Shown here: piece after piece, positions 3,744 through 26,857 of the stretch
Numbering within the stretch: position 1 is the first letter of the stretch
Layout of the letters: the number at the start of each line of letters is the position of its first letter
Translations under genes and position numbers: made by a program
Notes under the pieces: generated by a model
The model's database searches: none
Told to the model about the DNA's origin: nothing
What the model saw: only the letters and a program-made list of their open reading frames with translations
Virus record (IMG/VR): IMGVR_UViG_3300041402_000544
Span: 1-29,947 of that record
Source of the DNA: a virus
Taxonomy: Duplodnaviria > Caudoviricetes
Length of the DNA: 29,947 nt
Direction: 5' to 3' (one strand)

Positions 3744-3789
3744 TTTTTACCCCTCCAAGATTTATTGCGTTACTTTTTCAAGTCCTGTA

Positions 3790-4332: not shown

Positions 4333-4334
4333 AT

Positions 4335-4796: not shown

Positions 4797-4799
4797 GAG

Positions 4800-6109: not shown

Positions 6110-6146
6110 TTTGATTATCTCCTTCTACGACTTGACTCACCGCCGA

Positions 6147-6308: not shown

Positions 6309-6372
6309 AATTTTTATCCTCCTTCTCTTTTAGCTTTTACTTCACAGCAAAAGGTTTAACCGCAAAGAGCGA

Positions 6373-7332: not shown

Positions 7333-7366
7333 TTTTAAGTTTCCTCCATTTTAATTTGTGGGATCG

Positions 7367-8275: not shown

Positions 8276-8325
8276 CCGGGGTCGTTAGTAGTAAAAATCT
8301 TTTGACTCATCCGAGCCGCTCTTGC

Positions 8326-8760: not shown

Positions 8761-8935
8761 CCTTTATACCTTTATTATAATGCCTGAAAAGCATAAATAA
8801 TTTTCTAAAGATGCTGATAGCAATTTTTCTGTTTATACGTCCAGTTGAAGTATCCTTTGAAATAAATTCTTTACTATAACTCGTTTGTCCAAAGGTTTTT
8901 TCAAATACCGTCATTTTAATTTTAACATACGGCAA
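8753..8935 (-). CDS. Hypothetical protein
   Basis: 60 aa, TTG start with AGGAGG upstream, overlaps the next start. Confidence 0.55.
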   Translation of the reverse strand: MPYVKIKMTVFEKTFGQTSYSKEFISKDTSTGRINRKIAISIFRKLFMLFRHYNKGIKDV

Positions 8936-8947
8936 GTGACCGGCCTC

Positions 8948-9169
8948 CTAAGGAATCTCTCTTGAGTCCTCTTCATAAATAATATTATTTCTTTGCTTTG
9001 GGAATCTCTTCGTATGCAAGTTATCTCCATAAGCAATTTCCTCTGGGATACCGGCACCATCTGGGAATGCGACACAAATTACATACTCCCCGACTTCCTC
9101 TTCATCCTTCTGTGCCGCGCCAATGAAGTGTTTGCATTTTCTCGCGTAGCATCTGGGTTCCTCAATCAT
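8948..9169 (-). CDS. Small Cys/His protein, candidate partner/immunity of MuF extension
   Basis: 73 aa with C-x4-CKH...CVAFPDG-x-GIPEEI-x2-G-x3-H; directly downstream of MuF-metallopeptidase gene. Confidence 0.65.
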   Translation of the reverse strand: MIEEPRCYARKCKHFIGAAQKDEEEVGEYVICVAFPDGAGIPEEIAYGDNLHTKRFPKQRNNIIYEEDSREIP

Positions 9170-9173
9170 TTTA

Positions 9174-11042
9174 TTACTCTCCGAATAGCTTTTTCATGTA
9201 TGCCTCAACGTCCTTTGGTAGCATACCTGTTTTATAGTTCGGATTCACGTATGTCGCAAAGGATTCTGCAAATAACTCTTTGCCGTTTGTGGCACCATAC
9301 CTTGATATAGCTTTTTCCCAGAACTCATCCCCATGTGCATTCCAAATCTTATTCCATTCCCGAGACAAACTATTATTAATGGTATCCAAAATATTTATAT
9401 GGACATGGTGTCCCAATTCGTGGCGGAAGTTCGCCATAGTACTTTCACCCATTATCCATTCACCGGGAAGTACTCCATCCGCCTGACCACTTATCAGCGC
9501 ATTGCCTCTTACTCCTAATTTTATTTCTCCAGCCTTCTTAGTCGGGGAAGGCGGTTTATAACTCCCCATTGGTTTTGCTCTACCAGGAGCCGGGATATAC
9601 GAGTCATTATAAACCCGCATCCTTAGCTTTCCCACACTTGTGTTCATACCTTTTTTAATGAAGCCATTACCACGGTTTGCTAACCGATTCATTTCATCAG
9701 CCAATGGCTCAATTACTTGTTTCTGATAATCCTTATATACGTTATAGGATCTTCCGTGTGCTTCGCCAACATCAACTATATTTAAGACGCCGTTTGACTC
9801 AAGACTTTCAGCGGCAGATACTTCCCCTACTGGTACGGGTTTAGGCGCTGTCTTGGCTGTCGTTCTTACAGGTTTTGCCTTCAACGTTTTCTTCGATAGC
9901 GCTTTTGGCTTTATGCCTTCACGGGTATCCTGCTTTAACTTCTTTCCTTGTTTACTCAGATCACCTTTTAACTCCTTGATCTGATCACTCCATTCCCGTC
10001 TTTCATTCTTAAGTGGTACGAGTGCTTTATTTATTTCCTTTTTCCGTGTGGCAGATGCACCCTTGCGCTCATCCTTTAATGCCTTAGATTTTTCTTGACT
10101 TGCCTGATGCTTTGCTTTCAGCCCATCCATTTCTGTTACGGCACCACCGATTATTGGGAACTCATCCGCCTGAGCCATTGCGTATAACTCATCATCGGTT
10201 GTCTCACCAAACTCATCGTCAAGCCATTCCTTACGGATGGGTCGCCAGTGATGCCTACAATTATAGCCTCCACGGTATTCGTAGGCCGGACCGCTTTTCC
10301 CTTGCCAGTCGTGCGTCCATGAGTCAATTTGATTTCGGGTGTATGTCTTCATGGCACGGACTTTACAGAAGTGCCTCGTCTTCCCAATAATATCACCGAC
10401 ATACAGAAACTCATTCATACCTAAATCTTCGCCCTTTTTCAGATTGAGTTCATTATGGAAATTCATAACGGCGTCGTTGGCGAACTGTTTTGTATATGCA
10501 GTCATTGGGCGTCCGCGTGCATCCACGTGTCCTGTAAGTATTCCTTCCACCGCAGTCGTAAGGGCGCTGAATCGGCCACCACTAACGACTTGCGCGTACA
10601 TCGCATCTGCAATTTGATTGGTTGCATCATCCCCAAATGCCTTAAACTGATCCCACGTGGATGCCTCAAGTGTACTGATCATGTCCTTGTCTATCGCCGT
10701 ATATGCCGCCGATTCACCGAGGTCCTTCCACGATCTTTGAATGAACCGAGATATTTGAGAGAAGTCCCCAATTACTTCATCAACTGCCATACCATATTCC
10801 TGCTCCATTATTTTCAGCAGGTCTTTATGGTTTCTCTGCGCCTGTTTTAAATTTATCTTTACACCCTCTAATCGCCCGGAGGTGTTGGTTTCCAACTGTT
10901 GCATAAGGTTTACTATACGCCGCTGTGACCCCTGAACCGCTGTCGCTAAACGCCTCTCTACCGTACCGATAGAAGTGTTTAAAAAACTATCGGTTGCATC
11001 GACGTTTTCGAGTAATTGCGTTACGCGGCTTTTAACTACCAT
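9174..11042 (-). CDS. Minor head (MuF-like) protein with C-terminal zincin metallopeptidase
   Basis: N-half has YVG...TRHFC...RGGYNCRHHW head-morphogenesis motif; Lys-rich linker; C-terminal HELGH plus ISRYGATNGKELFAESF. Confidence 0.85.
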   Translation of the reverse strand: MVVKSRVTQLLENVDATDSFLNTSIGTVERRLATAVQGSQRRIVNLMQQLETNTSGRLEGVKINLKQAQRNHKDLLKIMEQEYGMAVDEVIGDFSQISRFIQRSWKDLGESAAYTAIDKDMISTLEASTWDQFKAFGDDATNQIADAMYAQVVSGGRFSALTTAVEGILTGHVDARGRPMTAYTKQFANDAVMNFHNELNLKKGEDLGMNEFLYVGDIIGKTRHFCKVRAMKTYTRNQIDSWTHDWQGKSGPAYEYRGGYNCRHHWRPIRKEWLDDEFGETTDDELYAMAQADEFPIIGGAVTEMDGLKAKHQASQEKSKALKDERKGASATRKKEINKALVPLKNERREWSDQIKELKGDLSKQGKKLKQDTREGIKPKALSKKTLKAKPVRTTAKTAPKPVPVGEVSAAESLESNGVLNIVDVGEAHGRSYNVYKDYQKQVIEPLADEMNRLANRGNGFIKKGMNTSVGKLRMRVYNDSYIPAPGRAKPMGSYKPPSPTKKAGEIKLGVRGNALISGQADGVLPGEWIMGESTMANFRHELGHHVHINILDTINNSLSREWNKIWNAHGDEFWEKAISRYGATNGKELFAESFATYVNPNYKTGMLPKDVEAYMKKLFGE

Positions 11043-11841
11043 GAGATTTCCTTATCACTTCATGAGCAATTGCCAATGCGTCCCTTGCCTGTTGTGCTTT
11101 GCCGGAGAATCCATTTAGGAAATATAATAACTCATCCTGCAAAGTGTCGTTTTCCTTCTCCATGAAATTATAGGTCTTGCCGGCGATAGTCATCTGTGCC
11201 TTCTGATTTTTACTTACTCGCTCTACCGAAAGGTCGGCAGTTATATTATCCACAAAATGCAACCGTGTAACTGCAATAAAGTTTTTGCCTCTTTTGTCAC
11301 GCATACCACTTGCAATCACCCGATATACGCGGGATTGCGTTAAGTCAAGTAGTAAATCGATGTCGTGAATCATAAGATCCATTACAATATCCGCATCCCC
11401 CCTGCAATAGCAACCATTTGACCGTTCCATTTTCACTTTGTCAAAACTGTTTAACTCATTATGCGCTCTTAGGTAAACGCTATTAAACCGTTCCAAGTGG
11501 CCGACGTGCAGATGTAATTTATTCTCCTTAGCTTTCCGTATAAGGTAGTCAGCCTGGACCAAGGTTGTAGTCATTGGCTTTTCAACCAAAACGTGTGTCC
11601 CATTCTGAAGGAAGTGGCGTGCCACCTTATAATGACTGGCATCGTCAGTGACTACACTTACAAATTCCGCTTCCACGTTTTTATAATCATTTGTTGCGCG
11701 GCAATTTAACCGACTCGCTAAGTCCGCGGCAATCAACTGATTATGGTCACATACGGTTAACTCCACGTCTGACATCGCCGCATACTTCTCAGCATGGTAC
11801 GTTCCAAACGTGCCGACGCCTATGACTGCAACCTTTTTCAT
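11032..11841 (-). CDS. Gfo/Idh/MocA-family NAD(P)-dependent oxidoreductase
   Basis: Rossmann VAVIGVGTFG, HVLVEKP, VGHLERFN and DLMIHDID motifs. Confidence 0.92.
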   Translation of the reverse strand: MKKVAVIGVGTFGTYHAEKYAAMSDVELTVCDHNQLIAADLASRLNCRATNDYKNVEAEFVSVVTDDASHYKVARHFLQNGTHVLVEKPMTTTLVQADYLIRKAKENKLHLHVGHLERFNSVYLRAHNELNSFDKVKMERSNGCYCRGDADIVMDLMIHDIDLLLDLTQSRVYRVIASGMRDKRGKNFIAVTRLHFVDNITADLSVERVSKNQKAQMTIAGKTYNFMEKENDTLQDELLYFLNGFSGKAQQARDALAIAHEVIRKSHGS

Positions 11842-11960
11842 TCTTTACTTGGCTTCTTCTTCGTATTGCTTACAATACGGGGTCGTTTGCCACTCTTATC
11901 AATTTTAACCCATCGGCCTTTTACTTTCCTCACGGAATATTTTTGTTTTTTCCTTGGCAT
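11838..11960 (-). CDS. Small basic protein (40 aa)
   Basis: Manual translation MPRKKQKYSVRKVKGRWVKIDKSGKRPRIVSNTKKKPSKE; TAATG and ATGA overlaps couple it to both neighbours; GGAGG RBS. Confidence 0.72.
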   Translation of the reverse strand: MPRKKQKYSVRKVKGRWVKIDKSGKRPRIVSNTKKKPSKE

Positions 11961-13477
11961 TATACCTCCTCTTCTTCTTCCTCTTCTTCCGGTGCGCCGA
12001 CCTCAGTACCAAACGCGGCTCCCGGGGTTATTGGTGGTGTAGCCGGTGATGCCTCAATTTCTTCATCTATTTCTTTTATCTGATCGTCATCAGCCGCCGG
12101 GAGCATCGCGCGTGCCACGGATTTTTGAATTGCCTCATTAAATTTCTTTGACTTCACTATCGTTTGTGCAGTCAGTGCATTTTCAAGGTCTGAGGCAAGG
12201 TTTTCCACATCATAGGTGCGGCTCCGCTCTATACTTATGTCTGCAATTATATTTTTATAGTCCTGCTCTTCCCACCGCAACCAATATTCGATAATTTGCT
12301 CTTCGGCTTTTTCAAGGTTCGTTGCCTTGCGGACAAGATTAGCATTGAGCAATTGGAACTCTGCTTTAAGCGCCGCACCACTTTTCGCTTCCGTCGATAT
12401 TTCAGTACTCGCCATTCCACCGGCATTTACGGCTCTATAAATTTCTTGCACCTTGCGTGCTATCCATCCCAGTATTGCATCAATTGGCTCTGCCACCTTT
12501 GCCTCAAGCCAGTCCGGTTTACTCTCCGGATGGTTCGGGTCAAACTCAAGGATTGCAGTTACCGCCGCGTGATCTTCTTTCGCGGGTACTTGTGCGCCAT
12601 CTGGGTGGGATTCCTTCATTGGCTTCCGCATCATCGGAAATGCGGCATAAGTAATTACTTCTTCTCCTTCGCTTAGATTGCTTAATATAGATACGTCTAT
12701 ACGGGCGACATCATGGATATCACTCATACCGATAGGCCGTTTTTTACTTCGCAGGTTTTGCAACCATACAAACGGAATCTCCCCAATTGGATTATCTCCT
12801 TCAAGAACCATTAGCGCGTCTGAATCATCCTTAATTTTTTGATCGTCAGTTTCCAACGGTATTTCCCATACTTCAAAATGATCAGTCCACCAGAGCCGGT
12901 ATTGCACAACGTCTTCATCCGAGTCATCCAGTAATTTAAGGTATGCCAAATACGGTCGGTTGTTGTCATCCCGTTTATATTCCCAGTCCAGTATAGCCGT
13001 GGGAAAATAACTCGCCACATACGGATAAACACCTTGCTCCAATTGCTCCTTGCGGTTTTCGAACGTTACAGACGCCTTATCTACAAGGATCCCCATGTGT
13101 CCTTCAATTGAGGCATAGCGCCCCTGCTCTGTTAAGAAATTATCAAAGTCATCCCCATATAGATTGCAGTCTTTCATGAATGCTGTCCATAACTCATCTC
13201 CTTTAAGGGTTGCCATATCTCGCTTTACAGGCTTTTTAAATAGGTAGAAATTAAAAAGGTCTACTACACTCTTTGAATAACTGAATCCGTATGCCTCACT
13301 TTTACGTCTGGCATAATTGGTATCGCTTTCCCGTTCATTTTGCCTCAGGTATCCAAGGCGCACTAATTCTTTCGCGCCCTCATAACTCGCCATTAGAAAA
13401 AACCACTCGGGTGCATTTGCCCGATACAAAATGTGTGTTCCCCTCAGATCACCGACCGTTAATTGCTCCTTTGGCAT
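11960..13477 (-). CDS. Portal protein
   Basis: 505 aa downstream of terminase; RESDTNYARRK, NPIGEIPFV and KSGAALK motifs of SPP1-like/DUF4055 portals; acidic tail. Confidence 0.88.
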   Translation of the reverse strand: MPKEQLTVGDLRGTHILYRANAPEWFFLMASYEGAKELVRLGYLRQNERESDTNYARRKSEAYGFSYSKSVVDLFNFYLFKKPVKRDMATLKGDELWTAFMKDCNLYGDDFDNFLTEQGRYASIEGHMGILVDKASVTFENRKEQLEQGVYPYVASYFPTAILDWEYKRDDNNRPYLAYLKLLDDSDEDVVQYRLWWTDHFEVWEIPLETDDQKIKDDSDALMVLEGDNPIGEIPFVWLQNLRSKKRPIGMSDIHDVARIDVSILSNLSEGEEVITYAAFPMMRKPMKESHPDGAQVPAKEDHAAVTAILEFDPNHPESKPDWLEAKVAEPIDAILGWIARKVQEIYRAVNAGGMASTEISTEAKSGAALKAEFQLLNANLVRKATNLEKAEEQIIEYWLRWEEQDYKNIIADISIERSRTYDVENLASDLENALTAQTIVKSKKFNEAIQKSVARAMLPAADDDQIKEIDEEIEASPATPPITPGAAFGTEVGAPEEEEEEEEV

Positions 13478-13496
13478 TTACTTTACTCCTTAAGAA

Positions 13497-13661
13497 TTAT
13501 CGTCGTCTTTGACTAAGGATTATTGCGGTGTGCATGGCATTTGCCTTTTTTTTACTACCGAAGCATTTGATTACTGTTCCAACTGGTTTGTCGCGTTTGC
13601 TTCCCGGCTTCCTGGGATGCCCATGGACAACTCACCACTTGCCTCCGCGTTTTCTAATCAT
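13497..13661 (-). CDS. Small basic protein with in-frame TGA at codon 10 (selenocysteine, readthrough or pseudogene)
   Basis: MIRKRGGKW*VVHGHPRKPGSKRDKPVGTVIKCFGSKKKANAMHTAIILSQRRR fills the gap before the portal; TGA at 13634-13632. Confidence 0.55.
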
Positions 13662-17620: not shown

Positions 17621-17959
17621 TATTTAGGATTGCCTTGGATGAAAGTTCTCCCAGTTAAATCTGGTGGTTTAACTTTAACTATAATGGCGTGGAGTGGGAA
17701 CAAAGCGCCAAGGATCAAAAGGCAAATTGTGCCCGATACCTTAAAAGTTAATTTACCATACTTCATCGAATCTGTGTTGTAAAGTCAGCCACGTTTCCTA
17801 AACCCGTTAACTATCAGGTGCCAAGTTAACCGCCTTGAATCACGTCTGCATTAAGTGTGCTAAGTAAAGGCGCGACACCATAACGGACATACCACTTTGA
17901 ATAAACATAGTAAAAGCGCAGGGACGTGCATAGCTTCTAATCCTCCTCCTTTAAATGAA

Positions 17960-18034
17960 GCCGAAACCACTTGTGCCTTTCGGGGCGCAAGTGGTATGCC
18001 ATCCATGGCAGGATGGTACTGATGAGGCAAGCTA
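17960..18034 (+). ncRNA. Type II hammerhead ribozyme HH1
   Basis: GCC GAAA; stem III CCACTTGTGCC/GGCGCAAGTGG; GUA site (cleavage 3' of 17996); stem I TGCCATCC/GGATGGTA; CTGATGA 18019-25; GGC; loop TGGC pairs with tail GCTA. Confidence 0.93.
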
Positions 18035-18061
18035 ATAACTAATTTAATGGAGGGTACTACA

Positions 18062-18277
18062 ATGACAAAAGCAAGAATGGGAAAAGAGTTTGAAAAAGCC
18101 GTTATGCGTTTAAGCAACATCGAAAACAAGTTTGCAGGCAATGAAGACAAGATTTTTCAACATATTATGCTTCGTGCCGACCGCATGACCAAAATTGAAA
18201 AACTTAAAATCTGGAAAAAGGTTCTGTGGCAGATGGGTCACCGTAAAGCCGCAAATTTCATTATGGTCGATATGTAA
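18062..18277 (+). CDS. Hypothetical early protein
   Basis: GGAGG RBS precedes ATG 18062 (ORF track starts 18047); bracketed by HH1 and HH2. Confidence 0.8.
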   Translation: MTKARMGKEFEKAVMRLSNIENKFAGNEDKIFQHIMLRADRMTKIEKLKIWKKVLWQMGHRKAANFIMVDM

Positions 18278-18279
18278 AA

Positions 18280-18360
18280 GCCGAAACGTGCCGGTCTCTG
18301 GAATACAGGGACTTGCGCGTATGCCGCATTTGACAACGCGGTACTGATGAGGCAAGTCAA
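18280..18360 (+). ncRNA. Type II hammerhead ribozyme HH2
   Basis: GCC GAAA; GUA site (3' of 18321); stem I TGCCGC/GCGGTA; CTGATGA 18344-50; loop TTGAC pairs with tail GTCAA. Confidence 0.93.
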
Positions 18361-18389
18361 CCCATTAATTACTTAAAGGAGGATTAAAT

Positions 18390-18779
18390 ATGTCTGGTTT
18401 AACTTTTATCATTACTGACACGAAGTATGACACGGCAAAAACGGATGACATTTTAAGCAAGATTGGAGAAGTTTTACCGCATGGTTCCGGTATTAACAGC
18501 GACTGGAACATTATGATGGCAAGTAACACACGTGTCCGGTGCCAAAGTTCATTCCATTGCATGGATGAAAATGGTATGTATGATGGTCACGCGGACTTTG
18601 TTTTTCTTTTCGATCTGCGGGATGCGCTCCATGGTGGTGATTATACCCGTTTAATGTTTATCGGCCGTGAATCGCAGTACAAAGCTAAAAAATATGATCT
18701 GCGGGATTACCTTTGGGACCTGTTATGTGAAACTTTGTATTATGCTTTCGGTGGCGAAGACATTCGCAAAGCATTTTAA
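18390..18779 (+). CDS. Hypothetical early protein
   Basis: 129 aa, AAAGGAGG RBS; LPHGSGIN...FHCMDENGMYDG. Confidence 0.85.
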   Translation: MSGLTFIITDTKYDTAKTDDILSKIGEVLPHGSGINSDWNIMMASNTRVRCQSSFHCMDENGMYDGHADFVFLFDLRDALHGGDYTRLMFIGRESQYKAKKYDLRDYLWDLLCETLYYAFGGEDIRKAF

Positions 18780-18860
18780 GCTGAAACCTTGTAAATCGCC
18801 TATTTTAGCCGGTTTACAGGGTCTGCGCGGTTTGGTCACCGCGTACTGATGAGGCGACCA
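18780..18860 (+). ncRNA. Type II hammerhead ribozyme HH3
   Basis: GCT GAAA; stem III CCTTGTAAATCG/CGGTTTACAGGG; GUC site (3' of 18823); stem I TGCGCGGT/ACCGCGTA; CTGATGA 18846-52; loop TGGTC pairs with tail GACCA. Confidence 0.92.
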
Positions 18861-18893
18861 TTTTATTAACTTTATTTTATAGGAGGATTTATC

Positions 18894-19274
18894 ATGACGA
18901 AAGCTAACAAGAAAATTGACAAGAGCCGTAAGACTGTTGTAAAGACTGCCAAGAAAGCCATTAAAAAGGCTGTCAAAAAGGCTATCAAGGCAACGCCGAA
19001 GAAAAAACCGGTCGTTACCATTAAAGCCAACGGCGTCAACAAAATGAAAAGCAGTCTGAAGATCCAAAAAGCATTGGCTCCCAAAGTAACGGAAGCAATG
19101 CGGGAAAGCGAATACGAGCGCTTTATTGATCTGGACGAAAAGCAATTGCTCAGCCGGATTGACCGCCTTAAAAGCGCTGTCAGGCTGGAAGTAATGCGGC
19201 AAATTGCCAAGATGTGTGGCGAAAAAAAGCTGATGCGTATCGCACGTGCGAAACGTAATGAAGTTTTTGCTTAA
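18894..19274 (+). CDS. Lys/Ala-rich basic protein (histone H1-like N-terminus)
   Basis: KTAKKAIKKAVKKAIKATPKKK repeats; AGGAGG RBS. Confidence 0.82.
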   Translation: MTKANKKIDKSRKTVVKTAKKAIKKAVKKAIKATPKKKPVVTIKANGVNKMKSSLKIQKALAPKVTEAMRESEYERFIDLDEKQLLSRIDRLKSAVRLEVMRQIAKMCGEKKLMRIARAKRNEVFA

Positions 19275-19276
19275 GA

Positions 19277-19359
19277 GCCGAAATGCTGTGGATCCCCGGT
19301 TATTAGGGGTCTACAGCATCTATGCAGGATGGTTTCCTGCATACTGATGAGGCAAACCA
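19277..19359 (+). ncRNA. Type II hammerhead ribozyme HH4
   Basis: GCC GAAA; stem III TGCTGTGGATCCC/GGGGTCTACAGCA; AUC site (3' of 19320); stem I TATGCAGGA/TCCTGCATA; CTGATGA 19344-50; loop TGGTT pairs with tail AACCA. Confidence 0.94.
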
Positions 19360-19378
19360 CTATAAAGGAGGATTAAAT

Positions 19379-19765
19379 ATGGACTTTGAAAAAGTCAAAG
19401 AGATCGTAGTAAAGGTTTTATCCAATTACGGATTAACCAATGAAGTAGAATTAAACACCGAAGATGATGCTTTTCCCTATTTGCAAATCGGTAAGGAATT
19501 CAGCATTGAGTTAAGCAAAGCAAATGAAAACAAATTTCAATTGACTTTGTGGGAACACATTCCAGCCACACGGCACGAGCCGGAAGACGTAAATGAGAAA
19601 ACCTTATTGCAGGATACTGATTTGACTCAGGCAATCCTGCGAATCATCAACGAATGGCACCACAATTTATTTCAAAACGCTTGGGAATATGCGGATATGC
19701 TAATTGAAGATGCCGAAGATGATGAAACGGGAGCAAATTGCCCGATTTGTACGCCGAATGAATAG
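19379..19765 (+). CDS. Hypothetical acidic early protein
   Basis: Start reassigned to ATG 19379 after AAAGGAGG; the ORF-track extension runs through HH4. Confidence 0.82.
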   Translation: MDFEKVKEIVVKVLSNYGLTNEVELNTEDDAFPYLQIGKEFSIELSKANENKFQLTLWEHIPATRHEPEDVNEKTLLQDTDLTQAILRIINEWHHNLFQNAWEYADMLIEDAEDDETGANCPICTPNE

Positions 19766-19846
19766 CCGAAACCCTGTAAATCCCCTACAATTGGGCGTCT
19801 ACAGGGTCTGCATAAGATGACTTCTTATGTGCTGATGAGGCAAGTC
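19765..19846 (+). ncRNA. Type II hammerhead ribozyme HH5
   Basis: GCC shares the G of the upstream TAG; GAAA; stem III CCCTGTA/TACAGGG; GUC site (3' of 19808); stem I TGCATAAGA/TCTTATGTG; CTGATGA 19832-38; loop GACT pairs with tail AGTC. Confidence 0.92.
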
Positions 19847-19879
19847 TATTTATAAACCATTTAACAGGAGGATTTAAAA

Positions 19880-20224
19880 ATGCTAAACTTAACACCATTT
19901 CAGGACATCGACTGGGATTGCTATGCCGGATGCGAAGACAAAAATCCGCTTATAGCAGATGACGTAATTACCATTGACTTGAACGGTTGCGGTTATGTCG
20001 GGCAAGTAATTGTAGATGGCTTTTTTGTAGTCATCCACATTGATCTTGCAAGTTATTTGGAAAACGATGACATTTCTTCGATTAAGGATCATCCTGTTTT
20101 AAATCAAGAAATGTCAATCATAAGCGAGCACATGACAAGGGAATTTGCCGTTAATATGGCAAAATCAATTCCTGACAAACCGACCGCAGAATGGCTATTT
20201 TTAAACGGTTTTAAATTGAGTTAA
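19880..20224 (+). CDS. Hypothetical acidic early protein
   Basis: 114 aa, AGGAGG RBS. Confidence 0.82.
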   Translation: MLNLTPFQDIDWDCYAGCEDKNPLIADDVITIDLNGCGYVGQVIVDGFFVVIHIDLASYLENDDISSIKDHPVLNQEMSIISEHMTREFAVNMAKSIPDKPTAEWLFLNGFKLS

Positions 20225-20235
20225 TGGAGGTCAGT

Positions 20236-20529
20236 ATGGATCGGTTAAAAGTATTTTTGGTTGGAGCAGGAATCCTTATGCTTTTCCTTATTATGGTCAT
20301 GTTGCAAAGTTGCAAAACCTTAAATACCGATGGGTATCTGCAAAAAAGTAACATAGATCCCCGGAAGACGGTCGTTTACGACAAGGACGCTAAGGATCAA
20401 GGTTATTTACAGGAATCATATCTTGATCGCCGGCGGACAACGCAATATGATAAAAAAGGGAACATAAAAGGATACTGGCAACAAGACTATGTGGATCCGC
20501 GTAAAACGCGGTTCTACAAGAAGAAGTAA
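20236..20529 (+). CDS. Putative lipoprotein with three internal repeats
   Basis: GGAGG RBS; signal MDRLKVFLVGAGILMLFLIMVMLQS-C (lipobox-like); repeats GY(L/W)Q-x4-D-x-R-x-T-x2-Y-x-K three times. Confidence 0.75.
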   Translation: MDRLKVFLVGAGILMLFLIMVMLQSCKTLNTDGYLQKSNIDPRKTVVYDKDAKDQGYLQESYLDRRRTTQYDKKGNIKGYWQQDYVDPRKTRFYKKK

Positions 20530-20600
20530 GCCGAAACTGTCGCTTGTAGATCGGCGGCAGTCGGGTGATTGTGGCAAATCACTCCTGATGAGGCAAGCCA
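20530..20600 (+). ncRNA. Type II hammerhead ribozyme HH6
   Basis: GCC GAAA; stem III CTGTCGCT/GGCGGCAG; GUC site (3' of 20562); stem I GGGTGATT/AATCACTC; CTGATGA 20585-91; loop TGGC pairs with tail GCCA. Confidence 0.93.
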
Positions 20601-20626
20601 AAAAACCTAATTAAAGGAGGATTATT

Positions 20627-21043
20627 ATGTCAAGAATTAAAACAAACCCGAAAAAGAAGAAGAGTATTATGCCAAAAGTCGAATTTGAAGTTGAAATTTT
20701 AGCCGACCTGATTGGTGGGCGTCCTGACAAGTCAAAGTGCATCCGGTTATCTATGAACCCGGAAGCGGTATTAAAGCGGGAATTTGACTTTTTTGATTTA
20801 ACTCCCGACAATGCTTATGCCTTAAAGGAAAAACTGGGAAAAGCCTTGGACCACATTAAAGATGTGGCGGATGCCTACAATACGCTGGATGAAATTGATA
20901 CCCATCTTGAATCCATGCAAAGCACCGTAACAGAGGCGCGGGACCGCATTGCAGATATGGAAAACGAAACTGCAATTGATGATATTTCAAGCGATCTGGA
21001 TGGCGATATGCGAGACCTAACTGAAGCGGTTGAAAGTCTTTAA
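20627..21043 (+). CDS. Hypothetical protein with acidic coiled-coil C-terminus
   Basis: 138 aa, AAAGGAGG RBS. Confidence 0.82.
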   Translation: MSRIKTNPKKKKSIMPKVEFEVEILADLIGGRPDKSKCIRLSMNPEAVLKREFDFFDLTPDNAYALKEKLGKALDHIKDVADAYNTLDEIDTHLESMQSTVTEARDRIADMENETAIDDISSDLDGDMRDLTEAVESL

Positions 21044-21117
21044 GCCGAAACGCCTGCCGATCACCATCTGGTGGGCGTCTACGCAAGGTGGCGCTTGCGT
21101 ACCGATGAGGCAAGCCA
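21044..21117 (+). ncRNA. Type II hammerhead HH7 (core variant CCGAUGA)
   Basis: GCC GAAA; stem III CGCCTGCC/GGTGGGCG; GUC site (3' of 21079); stem I TACGCAAG/CTTGCGTA; CCGATGA 21102-08; loop TGGC pairs with tail GCCA. Confidence 0.85.
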
Positions 21118-21140
21118 ATAACTTATAAAGGAGGATTATT

Positions 21141-21338
21141 ATGGGACGGTTCAAATACTATGCACCATTGGACCCGGAATGCCCGGAAGTAATTGAATAT
21201 CACGAGGCATTTGATGACGACCCAATCATGAAAATGTCAGGATGCGCGGGCGAATTTAGGGAAGACTTTGAAAACAAGCATCGTGGCAATTGCAAACGCT
21301 GTCAGTTATATGGCGCGGCAAATATCGATATCGTGTAG
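21141..21338 (+). CDS. Hypothetical small Cys-containing protein
   Basis: 65 aa, AAAGGAGG RBS, H-x3-CKRC. Confidence 0.8.
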   Translation: MGRFKYYAPLDPECPEVIEYHEAFDDDPIMKMSGCAGEFREDFENKHRGNCKRCQLYGAANIDIV

Positions 21339-21347
21339 GAGAAAATT

Positions 21348-21509
21348 ATGGCGAAAGTAATTAAGATTGCTGAATACCGTGGAGTTAAAATCAGGAGCGG
21401 CGATAAAGCGGTTTTGCACCTGACTGACTCCAAGCTGGAGAAAATCCATTTGCATTTAACTTGGACACAAGTTAAGGCGATATTAAGGGATTTTGGCAAG
21501 GCAAAGTAA
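21348..21509 (+). CDS. Hypothetical small protein (53 aa)
   Basis: Below ORF cutoff; AGGAG RBS; MAKVIKIAEYRGVKIRSGDKAVLHLTDSKLEKIHLHLTWTQVKAILRDFGKAK; stop lies directly before HH8. Confidence 0.75.
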   Translation: MAKVIKIAEYRGVKIRSGDKAVLHLTDSKLEKIHLHLTWTQVKAILRDFGKAK

Positions 21510-21510
21510 A

Positions 21511-21588
21511 CCCGAAACGCCTGTAGATGCACTATCTATAGGCGTCTGCGCGTCTGGTAGGCGGGCGCGTACTGATGAGGACAGCCTA
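21511..21588 (+). ncRNA. Type II hammerhead HH8 (2-bp stem II)
   Basis: CCC GAAA; stem III CGCCTGTAGAT/ATCTATAGGCG; GUC site (3' of 21546); stem I TGCGCGTCT/GGGCGCGTA; CTGATGA 21572-78 then GGA; loop TAGGC pairs with tail GCCTA. Confidence 0.88.
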
Positions 21589-21614
21589 AAACCATTTAAC
21601 AGGAGGATTTAATT

Positions 21615-21827
21615 ATGAGCAAAAAGGTTGAAATTTTGCTTGGCAAAGACGGCTCGATTCGCGTTGAGGCATTTGGCTTTAAAGGTGAATCCTGCGAAGA
21701 GGCAACCGCATTCCTTGATAAAATCTTCGGCAAGGCAAAGAAGGTGGACCACAAGGATTCTTATTATGAAGAAAATACCGTGAAAGACTTCGACGTTGAT
21801 GGTCTTCCCGGTGGACATTGCGGTTAA
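21615..21827 (+). CDS. DUF2997-like protein
   Basis: VEILLGKDGSIRVEAFGFKGESCEEATAFL matches the family pattern from recall. Confidence 0.8.
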   Translation: MSKKVEILLGKDGSIRVEAFGFKGESCEEATAFLDKIFGKAKKVDHKDSYYEENTVKDFDVDGLPGGHCG

Positions 21828-21839
21828 GGAGGTGAAACC

Positions 21840-22208
21840 ATGAGCCACATAAGCGAATATAGCCAAAAGATTAAAGACAAGGATATGTTTTTAGAAATTT
21901 GTGAGCAATTAGGTTATGAGACAAGACGCGGTGATCTAATTGTAAAGCAATTCGGGCGCAACGAAGTCCGCGCCATTGGCTCGGTTAAGCTTCCCGGCTG
22001 GAATTACGAAGTTGCCTTAACTGAAGATGGCAAGTTAAAGTACGACCATTGGGGAAGTGAAAAAGATTCCATGGATTATTTGGGACTGACAATCCAGCGC
22101 TACAATGATGCAAAGGTACGGACTGAAATTCCGTACGATGAAATTGAAGACTGGACAACCGAAGAAATGCCAAATGGCGACAAGAAAATCGTGCTTGAAT
22201 ATGCTTAA
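21840..22208 (+). CDS. DUF1257 (Ycf35-like) protein
   Basis: MSHIS...IKD...LGY start, D-x-W motif, Q-x-Y, and C-terminal NGDKKIVL; adjacent to DUF2997 and near a Ycf46-like ATPase. Confidence 0.72.
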   Translation: MSHISEYSQKIKDKDMFLEICEQLGYETRRGDLIVKQFGRNEVRAIGSVKLPGWNYEVALTEDGKLKYDHWGSEKDSMDYLGLTIQRYNDAKVRTEIPYDEIEDWTTEEMPNGDKKIVLEYA

Positions 22209-22212
22209 ACCT

Positions 22213-22297
22213 GCCGATAACCCTGTAAATCCCCGGTCTACGGGGCTCTACGGGGTCTGCGTATGGGTGGTTCCCTGCGTACTGATGAGGCAAACCA
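22213..22297 (+). ncRNA. Type II hammerhead HH9 (GAUAA insertion variant)
   Basis: GCC GATAA; stem III CCCTGTA..CCCCG/CGGGG..TACGGGG; GUC site (3' of 22257); bulged stem I TGCGTATGGG/CCCTGCGTA; CTGATGA 22282-88; loop TGGTT pairs with tail AACCA. Confidence 0.85.
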
Positions 22298-22323
22298 ATA
22301 ACTCATTTACAGGAGGATTAAAA

Positions 22324-22884
22324 ATGGACAAAGTAGAAATCCAAAGTATTGCGAGTGAAATTGACTCGTGGGTACAGGATGCCGTTGGAGATTGTGCCGG
22401 TCATGATGAAGAATCCTTAAAGGCAAATTTAAGCATGGATTCCAAATGGCTTAAAAAGGTAGCAAAGGCCAAAAAGGACGGCGTGGTGGACATCTGCGGT
22501 TGGTTGGCAGATGAATTATACAACCACGTTGACACCTTATGCGACCTGACCGGCGACCGTATCCATGAAAATGGCAAAGGCGATTATGAGACAATGATTC
22601 ATATCGCCAACGAAATTGCAGTTAAAGGACATCCTGCAATGCAGGAGGCAATGACAAAGCATATCGCGCGGTGGCGTGAAATGTTACCAGTCATTGTTAT
22701 TTGCGTTCATTGCGATGCTGTTTTGAAAAAGATTGGCAATCCTAAATATATCAGTCATTCAGATTGCCTCGGCTACAAGGATAAACCCTGTAAAGCCGGT
22801 CGTTTGTACCATCTGCGGTTAAGCCGTCAGCTTAGATATGAAAAATTTGACGATTATTTGCAGTCATTTAAACGTGAAAAGTAA
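22324..22884 (+). CDS. Hypothetical protein with C-terminal CxxC..H.C
   Basis: Start reassigned to ATG 22324 after AGGAGG; the ORF-track extension crosses the previous gene and HH9. Confidence 0.8.
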   Translation: MDKVEIQSIASEIDSWVQDAVGDCAGHDEESLKANLSMDSKWLKKVAKAKKDGVVDICGWLADELYNHVDTLCDLTGDRIHENGKGDYETMIHIANEIAVKGHPAMQEAMTKHIARWREMLPVIVICVHCDAVLKKIGNPKYISHSDCLGYKDKPCKAGRLYHLRLSRQLRYEKFDDYLQSFKREK

Positions 22885-22885
22885 A

Positions 22886-22961
22886 GCCGAAACGCCTGCC
22901 AGTCCCCGACTGGTGGGCTTCTGCGGAGTGTAGGCAACTCCGTACTGATGAGGCAAGCCTA
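22886..22961 (+). ncRNA. Type II hammerhead HH10 (UUC site, C-U mismatch at base of stem III)
   Basis: GCC GAAA C; stem III GCCTGCCAGTC/GACTGGTGGGC; TTC (3' of 22921); stem I TGCGGAGT/ACTCCGTA; CTGATGA 22945-51; loop TAGGC pairs with tail GCCTA. Confidence 0.85.
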
Positions 22962-22992
22962 TTTTATTAACTTTTTTAAAGGAGGATTAGTT

Positions 22993-24411
22993 ATGGATTC
23001 TGAAAAACTTATTAATTACTTAAGAGCCGGATTCCCATGTTTTTGGATGACGACTTCAGAACCGGATCGAGTGCGGAAGTTACTTTATCCGGCGCTGGAA
23101 GCCTACGAGCTAAAGGATGGCGGGAAGTATAAGGTGCAAGATTGGACGTGCATCAAAGAAAAGGACCCGTTGGCTCCCCTGACTGCGCTAACAGAAGGTG
23201 AGCATAACACGGTTACTTTTCTCTACAACTTCCATTGGTACATCGGCAAGCAACCTGTCATGCAGGCTATCCAAGATTTTGTACCACTATGGTCAAATCA
23301 AGGAAAGGCAATTGTTATCGTTAGCGCAATTGAGAAGATTCCTAAGGAATTGGAAAAAGATTTTACTCTTATTCCATTGCAGTTACCAAAGGAAGATGAA
23401 ATTATACAGGCGCTGGAAACGGTGGCTCCACAAAGCGACTATATGCCAAAGGATCGCGACAGCATTATTCGCGTGTCCAAAGGTTTGACTCGCCGGGAGT
23501 TGGAAAATGTTTTTGCATTATCCCTTGTAGAACATGGAGAGTTTAATATCCAGACGATCAATGACTACCGGTCGCAGATCGTTGCCAAAAGCGGACTCGC
23601 GGACATCCTGTCAACCGATTTAACCTTTGCGGATGTAATTGGTTATCAGGAAATTAAGGATCAGGTTATGGACACAATCCACAAGCCGGATTCGAAAGGC
23701 ATCATAGCAATTGGTCCAGCGGGAACTGGTAAAACAACTCTTATGCAAGCAATTGCAAATGAGTCTGGAAAGTTAGCAGTTAAGGTGCGGACCGGAATGC
23801 TTTTTAGCAAGTATCAAGGCGAAACAGATCAAAACGTGGATGCTTTGATTAATTTGCTCATAGCACTTGGCGATGTTTTTGTGCTTTTCGATGAATTTGA
23901 AAAGCAATTCGCCGGCGTCGGTGGACATGGCGAGATGGATAGTGGTACTACCACGCGGATGGGCGGTCGGTTCCTGGAATTTTTTCAGGACACGCCGTCA
24001 GGCATCTACCGCGGAGCTACCTGCAACTCGTTTATGGGTATTCCTCCGGCATACTTCCGGCCAGGACGGTGGGATTCCTCACCGTTTTATGTTGGTCTGC
24101 CTACGGAACAGGTTAAAACAAAAATTTTGGAATACTATATTTCAAAATTCGACCTGACAAAAAAGCAAATCAAGGAAACGCCTAAAATGGTAGACTGGAC
24201 GGGCGCTGAAATTGAGGCATTGTGCCATAATGCATCCATGCGAGACCTTTCGCTAATGGAGGCAAGCCAATTCGTATTGGCAATGGCGGCAGTCGCTAAG
24301 GAAGATATCCAGGCGCTTGAAAAATGGGCGAAAGGCCGAACAATTAATGCTGAAAAGGTTCCTGCTGTTAAATCGGCGGTATCCGCGGGAAAGCGCAAAG
24401 TTGATCTGTAG
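22993..24411 (+). CDS. AAA+ ATPase (Ycf46-like)
   Basis: Walker A GPAGTGKT, SKYQGETD, Walker B VLFDEFEK, SRH ATCN...RPGRWD, WTGAEIE; degenerate N-terminal AAA domain; start after AAAGGAGG. Confidence 0.9.
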   Translation: MDSEKLINYLRAGFPCFWMTTSEPDRVRKLLYPALEAYELKDGGKYKVQDWTCIKEKDPLAPLTALTEGEHNTVTFLYNFHWYIGKQPVMQAIQDFVPLWSNQGKAIVIVSAIEKIPKELEKDFTLIPLQLPKEDEIIQALETVAPQSDYMPKDRDSIIRVSKGLTRRELENVFALSLVEHGEFNIQTINDYRSQIVAKSGLADILSTDLTFADVIGYQEIKDQVMDTIHKPDSKGIIAIGPAGTGKTTLMQAIANESGKLAVKVRTGMLFSKYQGETDQNVDALINLLIALGDVFVLFDEFEKQFAGVGGHGEMDSGTTTRMGGRFLEFFQDTPSGIYRGATCNSFMGIPPAYFRPGRWDSSPFYVGLPTEQVKTKILEYYISKFDLTKKQIKETPKMVDWTGAEIEALCHNASMRDLSLMEASQFVLAMAAVAKEDIQALEKWAKGRTINAEKVPAVKSAVSAGKRKVDL

Positions 24412-24414
24412 TAC

Positions 24415-24485
24415 TTGAACAATCTTAGGTGCCGCGAGTAGAAATGCTCGCGGCTCCCATAGGATGTTCAATCAAGAACATTCTG
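24415..24485 (+). other. Structured intergenic RNA element (non-hammerhead)
   Basis: Hairpin GCCGCGAGTA-GAAA-TGCTCGCGGC, extended by TTGAAC-A-ATCTTA/TAGGATGTTCAA or followed by alternative hairpin AGGATGTTC/GAACATTCT. Confidence 0.6.
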
Positions 24486-24509
24486 AAAACAAATAAAGGA
24501 GGATTAATT

Positions 24510-25649
24510 ATGAGCAAAGAGTTTATTGGTATCGGTGCAAATCCAGACGTACCGGAGGCTCATGTGCATCTTGTAGCAAAGGGTCCGGGTAAAACCGGAG
24601 TTGCCTTTTGCGATAGGCGCACAACCGGTCTGGTTTATCAAGTGTTAATGACTGCCGCAGATGTTACTTGTAAAAAGTGCATGGAATATAAGGTATTCAA
24701 AGACATGATTGATCCCAGCCGCGCTAAGTCCCCGGATACCGTAGGAATACCGACAGCCAAAACCAAACCACCAGAGAAGAAAACGGAAACGGAGAAAAAG
24801 GCCGAAGCAAAGAAGGCCGCTGACAAGGATCTTGCAGATGACTTTAAAAAGACCAAGAAAGCGGCTGAAAAGAAAAAGGCAACACCGAAGAAAACGATGG
24901 AACCGTATGTTGACTTCGCCGCTGTCCCCAACAAGGATGGCACTTATAAGGTTAAGCACATTCCAAGCGGACGCGATTTCTTCGATACTGTTCCGGCATC
25001 TGTAATTGCCTTTGCTTTAGAGGCAATTAACTCTCTGGAGGACCGATGGGCAGGAGGCGGCAAGCCGATCCCCGAAAATTACGTTGCTACCGTTCGGGAT
25101 GCAGTTAAAAAGGTTTATAAAGATCGGAAAGTTAAACCGCCAGAGCATTTAACGCGGAAGCCTAAAAAGCAAAAGAAGAAAAAGCCACCGAAGGCACCAA
25201 AGGGAATAAAAACTGGCGATCAGGAAAGGCAAAAAGGCATCCTGATGGAATGGAACGGCAACCGCTGGATGCGTATCCAACGGCGTGTGGTTAAGCGCCG
25301 AGGCAAAGCCGAAGAAAAACCAGGAAGAGTTATTAAGCGACGCGGTGAATCCCCGGATACCAAGGGAAAACGCCAAATTAAACGGCGTGAAACACCTGCT
25401 GGACTTAATAAATACGGACAGGTTATGGATAAGCCTCCTGCATTAATCGCTGCCCATCTGCAAAACGGCGTCCATTTAAGTGTAGTTATTTCCGAATTGC
25501 AGGAAAAATTTGGGATGACCGAAAAACGCGCTCACAGTAAATTCCGGGCAATCACCCGTAAAATGGCGCGGCGGTTGGGAATTCAAATAACTCACATTTT
25601 GATGGGCGATCCAAGCAATGATTTTTACCACATTGTGGATGAAGATTAA
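24510..25649 (+). CDS. Lys-rich multidomain hypothetical protein
   Basis: Start after AAAGGAGG; N-terminal H...C...VTCKKC Zn-finger-like motif; basic linkers; possible C-terminal winged helix. Confidence 0.8.
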   Translation: MSKEFIGIGANPDVPEAHVHLVAKGPGKTGVAFCDRRTTGLVYQVLMTAADVTCKKCMEYKVFKDMIDPSRAKSPDTVGIPTAKTKPPEKKTETEKKAEAKKAADKDLADDFKKTKKAAEKKKATPKKTMEPYVDFAAVPNKDGTYKVKHIPSGRDFFDTVPASVIAFALEAINSLEDRWAGGGKPIPENYVATVRDAVKKVYKDRKVKPPEHLTRKPKKQKKKKPPKAPKGIKTGDQERQKGILMEWNGNRWMRIQRRVVKRRGKAEEKPGRVIKRRGESPDTKGKRQIKRRETPAGLNKYGQVMDKPPALIAAHLQNGVHLSVVISELQEKFGMTEKRAHSKFRAITRKMARRLGIQITHILMGDPSNDFYHIVDED

Positions 25650-25699
25650 CTCTGAGTGCCTGTGGATCCCCGTTATTTGGGGATCTACGGGCATCCAAA

Positions 25700-25766
25700 G
25701 CCGAAATGCCTGTTACTGACAGGCATCTACCATGCGTGGCGGCATGGTACTGATGAGGCAATGCCA
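25700..25766 (+). ncRNA. Type II hammerhead ribozyme HH11
   Basis: GCC GAAA; stem III TGCCTGT/ACAGGCA; AUC site (3' of 25727); stem I TACCATGC/GCATGGTA; CTGATGA 25750-56; loop TGGC pairs with tail GCCA. Confidence 0.93.
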
Positions 25767-25794
25767 AAAAACATTTTATCCAAAGGAGGATTCT

Positions 25795-26664
25795 ATGAGA
25801 GTAGAACAATTAGAAGAGGGAGTACTTTGCTCGCTGAAGATGGGACGATGGGCGGCATCTGTTCGTATGCCCAAAAGTAAATTAGGAAAATCGGTCCCAA
25901 AGGAAATCGTACGCGCAATGCAAGATTTGATCTCCGACAGGACATTACTCAAAGACTTAGCAACCATCCGGCGGTCAGCCAAAGGGTTATTGTTAAGGAG
26001 TAGTATCCCGTTTCCAGTCAACGGTGTTTTCTTCGTGCCAAAGGATCAGATTAACAACTTGGATGAATCATTTACTTCATTCATGGCAGAGAAGGAAATA
26101 CGCCTTGAAAAGCTAATCAGCAATTATAAGCGGTTGAAAAAGCAATTCAAGAAAAAGTATCCAGATTATTACAGCGAGAAGTATTATCCCACAGAAGCAA
26201 GACTTCGCAGGAAGTTTTACTTCAGTTGGCAATTCTTTCAATTTACTTTGCCCGATGAAGGCGCAAAGGTACTATCGCCGGCGATCTACAAAAAGGAACA
26301 GGAAAAATTCCAGCAGATGGTCGGGCTAATGGAAGAAATGACGATTTCACTCGTGGGTAATATGCTTCACAGGCGTCTGGATAAACTTGCAAAGCAATGC
26401 GATTCTGGCAAAATTAACGCTGGAACCGTACATTCAGTCGACCGTTTTCTTTCGCGCTGGGATGACTTATGGCGCGGACACGTCGATGACAAGAAAATGC
26501 GTATGATTATGAACCAATTAAAGCGCCAGATGAAAGAGGCGTCCGCGGAACGTTTGAAAAACAACGATGAATTCCGTGGCGAGGTTGGAGACAAAATTGG
26601 TTCATTAATGAGCAAACTCCAGAAATTGCCTAACTTTGAGTTGAAACGTAAACTCGATATTTAG
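25795..26664 (+). CDS. Hypothetical helical protein (DUF3150-like)
   Basis: Start after AAAGGAGG; SIPFPVNGVFFVP and YPTEARLRRKF resemble DUF3150-type proteins (recall only). Confidence 0.65.
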   Translation: MRVEQLEEGVLCSLKMGRWAASVRMPKSKLGKSVPKEIVRAMQDLISDRTLLKDLATIRRSAKGLLLRSSIPFPVNGVFFVPKDQINNLDESFTSFMAEKEIRLEKLISNYKRLKKQFKKKYPDYYSEKYYPTEARLRRKFYFSWQFFQFTLPDEGAKVLSPAIYKKEQEKFQQMVGLMEEMTISLVGNMLHRRLDKLAKQCDSGKINAGTVHSVDRFLSRWDDLWRGHVDDKKMRMIMNQLKRQMKEASAERLKNNDEFRGEVGDKIGSLMSKLQKLPNFELKRKLDI

Positions 26665-26667
26665 CCA

Positions 26668-26720
26668 GTCCACTTTGCCCGAACGGGGTTGAAAAACTCC
26701 GTTCGGGCGGACTTGTTTTT
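26668..26720 (+). terminator. Probable intrinsic terminator ending the ribozyme-containing unit
   Basis: 14-bp stem GCCCGAACGGGGTT-GAAA-AACTCCGTTCGGGC plus AGTCC/GGACT, followed by TGTTTTT. Confidence 0.7.
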
Positions 26721-26792
26721 GTGTAGGCATATTCATTGTCCAGTTTGCTTAGTCCCTTATATACCGCGGACCTACCCGCATGGAGAAAAACC

Positions 26793-26821
26793 TTTACAAT
26801 ATAAAGTAGTTATGTTATAAA
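26793..26821 (+). promoter_or_regulatory. Sigma70-type promoter for replication genes
   Basis: TTTACA-17 bp-TATAAA with extended -10 TGn, upstream of GGAGG and ATG 26858. Confidence 0.7.
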
Positions 26822-26857
26822 TATGCGTGTTTTTCTAATTTTTGGAGGGTACACAAT

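Follow-up and report, generated by a model that had tools for sequence, protein, structure and literature searches.

An array of hammerhead ribozymes in a phage operon, exchanged with RNase III-like hairpins in relatives, may divide one transcript into hairpin-capped mRNAs

The virus record IMGVR_UViG_3300041402_000544 (Duplodnaviria; Caudoviricetes), analysed here over its full length of 29,947 bases (hereafter the window; completeness ~35%), carries 11 hammerhead ribozymes and one long interrupted hairpin at the gene boundaries of a putative early operon. Our preferred model, to which we assign a probability of roughly 0.78, is that the early transcript would be cut at these 12 points into ~13 RNAs, every one of them capped by a hairpin at either end and equipped with a separate ribosome-binding site (RBS). 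This processing model is supported because relatives place hairpins resembling ribonuclease III (RNase III) sites at the same boundaries.

A search of the whole window on both strands with Rfam models (cmscan, E<=1) returned exactly 11 matches, all to Hammerhead_II (RF02276), all on the + strand and all between positions 17959 and 25769, and no Hammerhead_II match was found in any of 14 control genomes. Four of the 11 scores are at or above the gathering score of 37 bits, and the other seven, which have long insertions in stem III, range from 23.9 to 35.7. A strict descriptor applied to both strands recovered nine of the 11 (100 dinucleotide shuffles gave a mean of 0.01 matches and a maximum of 1), and a relaxed descriptor applied to the + strand recovered all 11 with no other match.

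Hammerheads cleave 3' of H17, leaving a 2',3'-cyclic phosphate and a 5'-OH. Listed with coordinates, cleavage triplet, the N17 position after which the cut is predicted and Rfam score, the + strand elements are HH1 (17959..18036, GUA, 17996, 34.5 bits), HH2 (18279..18361, GUA, 18321, 30.6 bits), HH3 (18779..18862, GUC, 18823, 30.1 bits, with a G-U pair at the base of stem II), HH4 (19276..19361, AUC, 19320, 35.7 bits), HH5 (19764..19849, GUC, 19808, 26.7 bits) and HH6 (20529..20603, GUC, 20562, 44.9 bits). They are followed by HH7 (21043..21119, GUC, 21079, 41.7 bits), HH8 (21510..21590, GUC, 21546, 35.3 bits, with a stem II of 2 base pairs (bp)), HH9 (22212..22299, GUC, 22257, 23.9 bits), HH10 (22885..22962, UUC, 22921, 37.5 bits) and HH11 (25699..25769, AUC, 25727, 54.4 bits). 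The triplets are therefore GUC in six elements, GUA in two, AUC in two and UUC in one. Successive predicted cuts are spaced by 325, 502, 497, 488, 754, 517, 467, 711, 664 and 2806 nucleotides (nt). Elements HH2 to HH10 begin -1 to +4 nt relative to the upstream stop codon and HH11 begins 50 nt past it. Downstream of all 11 cuts lie a GGAGG sequence and an ATG at 58-71 nt, the intact RBS being 45-60 nt from the cut. A sequence-only reading of this DNA had proposed 11 co-oriented type II hammerheads, starts within about 4 nt of the stop codon for HH2 to HH10, a GGAGG RBS after every element and no hammerhead in the structural or replication modules, all of which these searches bear out; its cut sites and fragment sizes were identical to the values we recomputed.

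The catalytic core C3 U4 G5 A6 N7 G8 A9 is exact in 10 of the 11 copies, the exception being HH7 (U4C). The segment G12 A13 A14 A15.1, together with U16.1 H17 and the A15.1-U16.1 pair, is likewise exact in 10, the exception being HH9, where a U is inserted into GAAA after A13 (U13a-type). Core and junction are both canonical in eight copies; the third deviant is HH10, in which a C.U mismatch (15.2/16.2) adjoins the A15.1-U16.1 pair, and this mismatch recurs in three of the relatives described below (L003, L004 and L187). Both U4C and the U13a insertion are described as natural variants by Perreault et al. (2011, PMC3088659), who report that U4C is less active in vitro, yet active enough for viroid infectivity. 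Neither HH7 nor HH9 would pass the strict first filter of that study.

All 11 copies have a closed stem I of 6-10 bp, an open stem II of 2-3 bp and a stem III hairpin of 19-35 nt. A pseudoknot between loop I and the 3' tail, reported to be required for fast cleavage (PMC3088659), can form in every copy with 4-6 pairs when G-U pairs are counted. The summed Watson-Crick pairing of loops with their cognate tails is 50 in the window, compared with a mean of 36.3 when tails are permuted (p=4e-5); the test that includes G-U pairs gave p=0.023 and an earlier version of the test p=0.007. For 61 copies from the whole group, after removal of one spurious row from L196, the cognate sum is 277 and the permuted maximum 221. 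Loops fit their own tails better than the tails of other copies, and the hammerheads are structures under selection. In some relatives the hammerhead 3' tail can also pair with its own core, with compensatory changes (L144 3282-3356 and 1717-1783, L188 ~250-350, L180 ~860-960), and this pairing may act as an off-switch after cleavage. The cores of L180 and L188 show a U3-A8 covariation.

The twelfth boundary element (24415..24485, + strand), overlooked in the sequence-only reading, is an interrupted hairpin of ~24 bp (24415-24471). The 3' strand of its lower part (24460-24469) can pair alternatively with 24476-24485. The hairpin is markedly stable (z=-6.57, with none of 200 shuffles as stable), and none of 200 shuffles reached the stability of the alternative downstream hairpin. 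It has the helix length (about two turns, at least 11 bp) and the internal loop of an RNase III site, and a nick is predicted near 24458. Because of this switch hairpin the 2806-nt interval, put forward earlier as a single unit, is probably split into about 1540 + 1270 nt, although its overall spacing stands. Punctuation gene by gene, another earlier claim, does not hold strictly: 11 of the 15 operon genes lie behind a hammerhead, one lies behind the long hairpin, which forms the 3' boundary of the ATPase gene, and three follow 9-12-nt spacers without any element.

Relatives were collected with the AAA+ ATPase of the operon (gene 13) as marker, together with its DUF3150 protein. These searches gave about two dozen loci from one uncultured group (41-77% identity) that have a common gene order and differ in the boundary element. 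Hammerheads are used by L003, L004, L144, L179, L187, L188 and L190. Long interrupted hairpins between stop codon and RBS, with no hammerheads, are found in L001, L002, L143, L178, L185, L186 and L194-L197. By our own classing, 65 orthologous leaders of four genes (15 of DUF2997, 20 of the ATPase, 15 of gene 14 and 15 of DUF3150) comprise 22 with a hammerhead, 34 with a long hairpin and nine with neither; the DUF3150 leader of the window is the only one that holds both. Mixed phages exist: a hairpin precedes DUF2997 in L190 and gene 14 in the window, and the gene 14 leader has a long hairpin in eight other loci as well.

By the ATPase phylogeny, the type of element has switched three times or more. 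Given the well-supported branches of this tree (20 rows, L145, L192 and L193 being assigned to no group), the hammerhead-array label has to change three times, and a hairpin phage, L178, is sister to a hammerhead phage, L179 (support 100/98). In the DUF3150 tree (15 rows) a single hairpin clade is rejected (p value of the approximately unbiased test, p-AU, 6.6e-5), and L180, the carrier of the U3-A8 hammerhead variant, falls within a hairpin clade supported at 100/99. The closest relatives, L183 and L184 (75-77% ATPase identity), have one hammerhead-like element in a leader (L183 ~160-230, L184 ~7485-7560, with a U10.1.U11.1 mismatch), and most of their other genes are tightly packed. The sequence ACTGACAAGGTAA is repeated ahead of the ATPase gene in both loci and ahead of the DUF3150 gene in L183.

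The long hairpins of the group are structures of the coding-strand RNA: in 60 of 69 of them the + strand is the more stably folded one, and they contain 212 G-U pairs. For most of the 69 hairpins in relatives the next 10 nt hold no more than four T residues. One family has a CC-GRGCA / CA-GGU core that is invariant in all 24 aligned copies from seven loci (chosen out of 41 array matches); in this alignment pairing is kept in 90% of cells, with changes on both sides in 15 of 22 pairs. Upper stems selected by the motif measure 10-17 bp, with 39 of 42 reaching at least 12, whereas two of 120 unrelated motif hits reach at least 11. Outside the arrays, a search for CCGAGCAC..GTTCAGGT in 120 viral loci (about 17 of 64 collection parts) found no further arrays and eight loci with two loose matches; such scattered matches, which mostly have short stems, were treated as chance.

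As in the window, the lower stem's 3' strand has an alternative partner in the tail just before the RBS, and outside L178 the downstream hairpin formed in this way exceeds shuffles at p<=0.05 in 58 of 70 elements. In the aligned family 75% of its cells pair and its covariation is 0.235, versus 0.149 for shuffled and at most 0.135 for slid alignments, but two pair-type measures are not above shuffles. An internal loop of the kind that limits cutting to one strand is present in the window, L001, L002, L143, L185, L186 and L194-L197. In L178 most stems are instead near-perfect. At the boundaries in this locus (3400-13500) a short, GC-rich hairpin comes first, then a near-perfect one of 18-21 bp and a GGCAAWC motif, a layout that would suit double cutting by RNase III and a 3' protector that is a separate structure. 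Within the hairpin of L002 and L196, the loop core CCGAGC / GUCAGG is present in both orientations; a two-fold symmetric binder, for example an RNase III dimer, would call for such an arrangement.

A sequence link between the two element types comes from the stem motif CTGTRRA..TYTACRG, which is found in three window stems III, in an orphan hairpin of the window and in hairpins of L001, L185, L186 and L195 and is missing from 13 other loci. This common motif hints that the long stems III of the window descend from the hairpins of the clade. The orphan hairpin (25656..25695, + strand, ~17 bp) closely resembles stem III of HH4 and ends in AUC, without an upstream GAAA, and is likely a relic of a hammerhead that was replaced.

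In the proposed mechanism, the 11 hammerheads and the long hairpin would cut a single early transcript into one- or two-gene mRNAs. With the type II order, the upstream product would end in stem III and the downstream product would have stem I at its start, with the ATG 58-71 nt further on. At the long hairpins, a host enzyme of the RNase III family would nick the 3' strand of the internal loop. The freed strand could then refold into a 5'-terminal hairpin, while the upstream RNA would also end in a hairpin. Both new ends would be shielded from exonucleases, and each unit would have its own lifetime and an independent RBS. The two element types are thus predicted to give products of the same doubly protected shape, which supports cut-and-protect processing as the function, and from this we infer protection, not decay, after cleavage.

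By analogy with known sites, RNase III is the probable cutter of the long hairpins. The enzyme needs a helix of at least 11 bp, and where there is an internal loop it is limited to a single cut, after which a protective 3' hairpin is left (PMC1540722). The CC/GG at the centre, together with AGGU, is similar to the in vivo RNase III WSSW and Mini-III preferences (PMC6212723, PMC4357697), which is a likeness only. A more doubtful reading is that the invariant-core switch hairpins are a new class of self-cleaving ribozyme, in which cleavage at the CA step or close to it would be followed by a refolding that locks the products apart; no Rfam ribozyme match with E<=5 was found in eight hairpin loci. 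The sequence-only reading had likened the self-cut, hairpin-capped units to RNase III processing of phage T7 early mRNA. That likeness remains the best account, given the relatives' hairpins at the same boundaries; the description as protein-free is not sure, as one boundary is a hairpin.

Several observations weigh against the processing model. Seven of the 11 hammerheads score below the Rfam gathering threshold of 37 bits, and three (HH7, HH9 and HH10) deviate at or beside the core, U4C being a change that lowers activity in vitro (PMC3088659). The downstream alternative is found in just two of the 10 hairpins of L178. In the CC-GRGCA / CA-GGU family, an AGG^U cut by analogy with Mini-III (PMC4357697) would lie 3 nt inside the alternative hairpin, which leaves the predicted cut site approximate. 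The starred branches of the DUF3150 tree force just one change among labelled rows, and because this tree and the ATPase tree place the window differently the genomes are mosaic, so the direction of the swap cannot be read. The array is missing from L183 and L184 and is therefore dispensable in the group. Moreover, our counts overstate independence, since the copies in one phage are related, as are the near-identical phages L185/L186 and L194/L197.

Cutting could also serve a purpose other than stabilisation, namely a quick early shut-off or the setting of gene ratios through decay. Cleavage by the glmS ribozyme leads to degradation, and differing stability of processed transcripts is an open proposal in the review literature (PMC6765202); the core variants of HH7, HH9 and HH10 could in that case tune cutting rates. 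We consider this unlikely, given the hairpin predicted at each new end for both element types, the role of 3' hairpins as stability determinants after single RNase III cuts (PMC3867540) and the intact RBS downstream of each cut. It is less likely still that the elements are mainly cassette borders, that is, repeats spread by recombination between which small genes are gained, lost and shuffled while cleavage is incidental. Such borders would agree with the variable gene content between elements among relatives, the similarity of copies within one phage, the missing array in the closest relatives and the likely relic half-element ahead of HH11. However, stem and pseudoknot sequences vary while pairing is kept, which indicates selection on RNA structure and not on DNA identity, and structurally unrelated elements occupy the same boundaries before conserved genes.

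Phages of the T4 type flank small early genes with repeated cassettes of a promoter plus a stem-loop, and some L002 hairpins contain TATAAT. It is nevertheless very improbable that the elements act at the DNA level or in transcription, as internal promoters, operators or terminators. Promoter-like sites between 16400 and 27000 number 23, against 19.5 +/- 4.3 expected, and none of the 12 window boundaries has a terminator-like site on the + strand. Repeated internal promoters and intrinsic terminators were accordingly rejected on the promoter count and the absence of U-tract hairpins at the 12 boundaries. The TATAAT hexamer is not kept among L002 copies whereas pairing is, the hairpins fold better as the + strand, and full hammerhead cores with pseudoknots would be left unexplained. 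Likenesses to integron attC and to the signal recognition particle (SRP) loop were dismissed by eye against the consensus sequences. We give almost no credence to cleavage in the service of re-ligation, whether into gene-sized circular or spliced RNAs or for RNA-mediated cassette movement. Units released by successive type II cuts would have a 5'-OH at one end and a 2',3'-cyclic phosphate at the other, and spliced or circular products are raised as a possibility in PMC3088659, but that study detected neither product. RNase III-type ends differ chemically yet occupy the same places, and no reverse transcriptase or RNA ligase family was found among the 36 window proteins scanned in this ~35% complete record.

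A weaker step of the proposed mechanism concerns the leader. At the 3' end of the ~700-nt non-coding leader lies an 11-mer resembling an anti-Shine-Dalgarno sequence (AUCCUCCUCCU, 17940..17950, + strand), which might keep the first RBS shut until the first cut. The 11-mer ATCCTCCTCCT is present as a single + strand copy at the leader end, before the first element, in the window, L001, L004, L187, L190, L143 and L179, and these seven phages include both hammerhead and hairpin types. Among the 18 loci checked, it is absent from L183, L184 and loci that possibly do not reach the operon start. Pairing with the RBS of the first gene across the first element has a predicted probability of 0.96-1.00 in all seven phages. 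However, any nearby Shine-Dalgarno sequence would pair, and complementarity is greater to later RBSs than to the first. All seven phages also have a - strand start codon at RBS distance from the 11-mer, opening unrelated reading frames of 5-126 codons, and the 11-mer could be a leftward RBS instead. The leader folds only modestly (z=-2.2) and is without Rfam matches, and apart from the 11-mer its alignment among relatives is poor.

The array lies at the start of the rightward module of the window, which begins with ~700 non-coding bases, continues with 15 genes (18062-26664) and a terminator-like hairpin, and ends in helicase and primase genes. The leftward module carries terminase, portal, capsid, tail and tape-measure protein genes. 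We call the operon early on the grounds that its small genes of no assigned function lie ahead of the replication genes. Family assignments above cut-off were obtained for three of its genes (DUF2997, AAA+ ATPase and DUF3150). All on the + strand, the genes are gene 1 (18062..18277, 71 amino acids (aa), no family), gene 2 (18390..18779, 129 aa, no family, with homologues in L187, L190, L004 and L002), gene 3 (18894..19274, 126 aa, lysine-rich, no family) and gene 4 (19379..19765, 128 aa, no family). Genes 5 (19880-20224, 114 aa) and 6 (20236-20529, 97 aa) form a two-gene unit (19880..20529) with no element in between. Gene 7 (20627..21043, 138 aa) has a DUF5798 match under cut-off. Two further two-gene units are made up of genes 8 (21141-21338, 65 aa) and 9 (21348-21509, 53 aa), spanning 21141..21509, and of genes 10 (21615-21827, DUF2997, PF11211, E=6.6e-9) and 11 (21840-22208, 122 aa), spanning 21615..22208. 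The remaining genes are gene 12 (22324..22884, 186 aa, no family), gene 13 (22993..24411, 472 aa, AAA+ ATPase of the SpoVK/Ycf46 type, PF00004, E=1.9e-12), gene 14 (24510..25649, 379 aa, lysine-rich, no family) and gene 15 (25795..26664, 289 aa, DUF3150, PF11348, E=4.5e-9). A hairpin of 17 bp with a U tract (26674..26721, + strand), similar to an intrinsic terminator, is likely the end of the operon. Directly after it, inspection by eye revealed TTTACA-17-TATAAA with an extended -10 TG (26794-26822, + strand), likely the promoter of the replication genes.

Other features of the window include a 622-aa protein encoded between the portal and scaffold genes (9174-11042, - strand). Its C-terminal Pfam match to ATLF (PF07737, E=5.6e-8, residues 539-602) suggests that a zinc-peptidase-like domain is possibly joined to a head protein. 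A GFO/IDH/MocA oxidoreductase gene (11032-11841, - strand) lies within the head morphogenesis module, and no tRNA genes were found. Among the matches listed, cultured phages reach ~23-25% identity for the ATPase and up to ~39% for the capsid protein. One homologue, P0096 (43% identity), is labelled as from a Desulfobacteraceae metagenome-assembled genome, which is a weak hint only as to the host. Searches of a genome-contig collection with the ATPase and DUF3150 alignments found no relatives. The low-complexity coding stretch of L001 (~21000-21425) is long and rich in Asp and Glu.

The group amounts to a natural substitution experiment, in which the same conserved genes stand behind a hammerhead, an RNase III-like hairpin or, in a few cases, nothing. 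The element swap makes the purpose testable in a reporter operon. The ~60 natural type II hammerheads with varied pseudoknots could serve as insulator parts, and the invariant-core hairpin is a well-defined candidate motif for a self-cleavage screen. If the doubtful new-ribozyme reading were true, the group would have an all-RNA punctuation of mRNA from two unrelated catalysts, in which the first cut would also free the anti-Shine-Dalgarno leader that gates translation.

Clusters of hammerheads have precedents. Perreault et al. (2011, PMC3088659) report that in prophages several hammerheads are often found on the flanks of single genes or short runs of genes, propose processing into operon- or single-gene mRNAs, and show that tandem arrays, as constructs of two or three ribozymes, cut in vitro and in E. 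coli. A 2019 review (PMC6765202) calls the roles of bacterial self-cleaving ribozymes largely elusive and treats polycistron processing as a suggestion that needs work. The sequence-only reading knew of single hammerheads in phage intergenic regions but of no gene-by-gene punctuation at this density, left novelty to a literature check and suggested counting elements in related phages. The proposed processing is published in outline in the 2011 paper, and the counts in relatives are higher: 15 in L187 and 14 in L190 by descriptor (nine and eight, respectively, above the Rfam cut-off) and 13 in L004 by eye. A survey of IMG/VR (129 loci, 6 of 64 parts) found three contigs with 7, 9 and 11 hammerheads. 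The contig with 11 (L038-L040, one contig) has no tblastn match to the window's early proteins; its hammerheads are short, of type II and without an obvious pseudoknot tail. A count of 11 is not exceptional and no record, and the window array is a larger member of the kind described in 2011. Among titles and opening lines of abstracts, with subscription journals thinly covered, we found no publication on an exchange of hammerheads and hairpins at orthologous phage boundaries.

Three known systems invite comparison. The invariant-core hairpins share with the twister-sister-like minimal ribozymes of Zhang et al. (2024, PMC11620745) two stems and a conserved internal loop with a CA step. This identity was rejected, as the loop letters in the text numbering of that paper (G7 C8 U9 C10 A11 A12; G36 C37 U38 A39 G40) do not match GUUCAG / GAGCA of the group and Rfam gave no match. 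The signals of T7 early mRNA, five RNase III sites in a ~7000-nt precursor whose 3' hairpins act as stability determinants (PMC3867540), are a closer parallel. They too are long interrupted hairpins between early genes, with a helix of at least 11 bp over an internal loop and single cuts that leave 3' hairpins, a likeness that covers the twelfth element of the window and the hairpin arrays of L001, L002, L143, L185 and L186. In contrast to the T7 signals, the hairpins of the group are mutually exclusive with a second hairpin further downstream, and the CC-GRGCA / CA-GGU core is invariant in one family. The prophage clusters of Perreault et al. agree with the window in the type II order, the 2-3-bp stem II, the loop-I/3'-tail pseudoknot, the placement next to single genes or short gene blocks and the idea of a long phage transcript being cut into operon- or single-gene mRNAs. 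They differ in size, the arrays tested having two or three ribozymes compared with 11 in the window and 13-15 in relatives, although larger published clusters may exist. The accessible text of that paper describes no exchange with non-ribozyme hairpins at orthologous boundaries, and it is this exchange with RNase III-like hairpins that the present locus adds to the published clusters.

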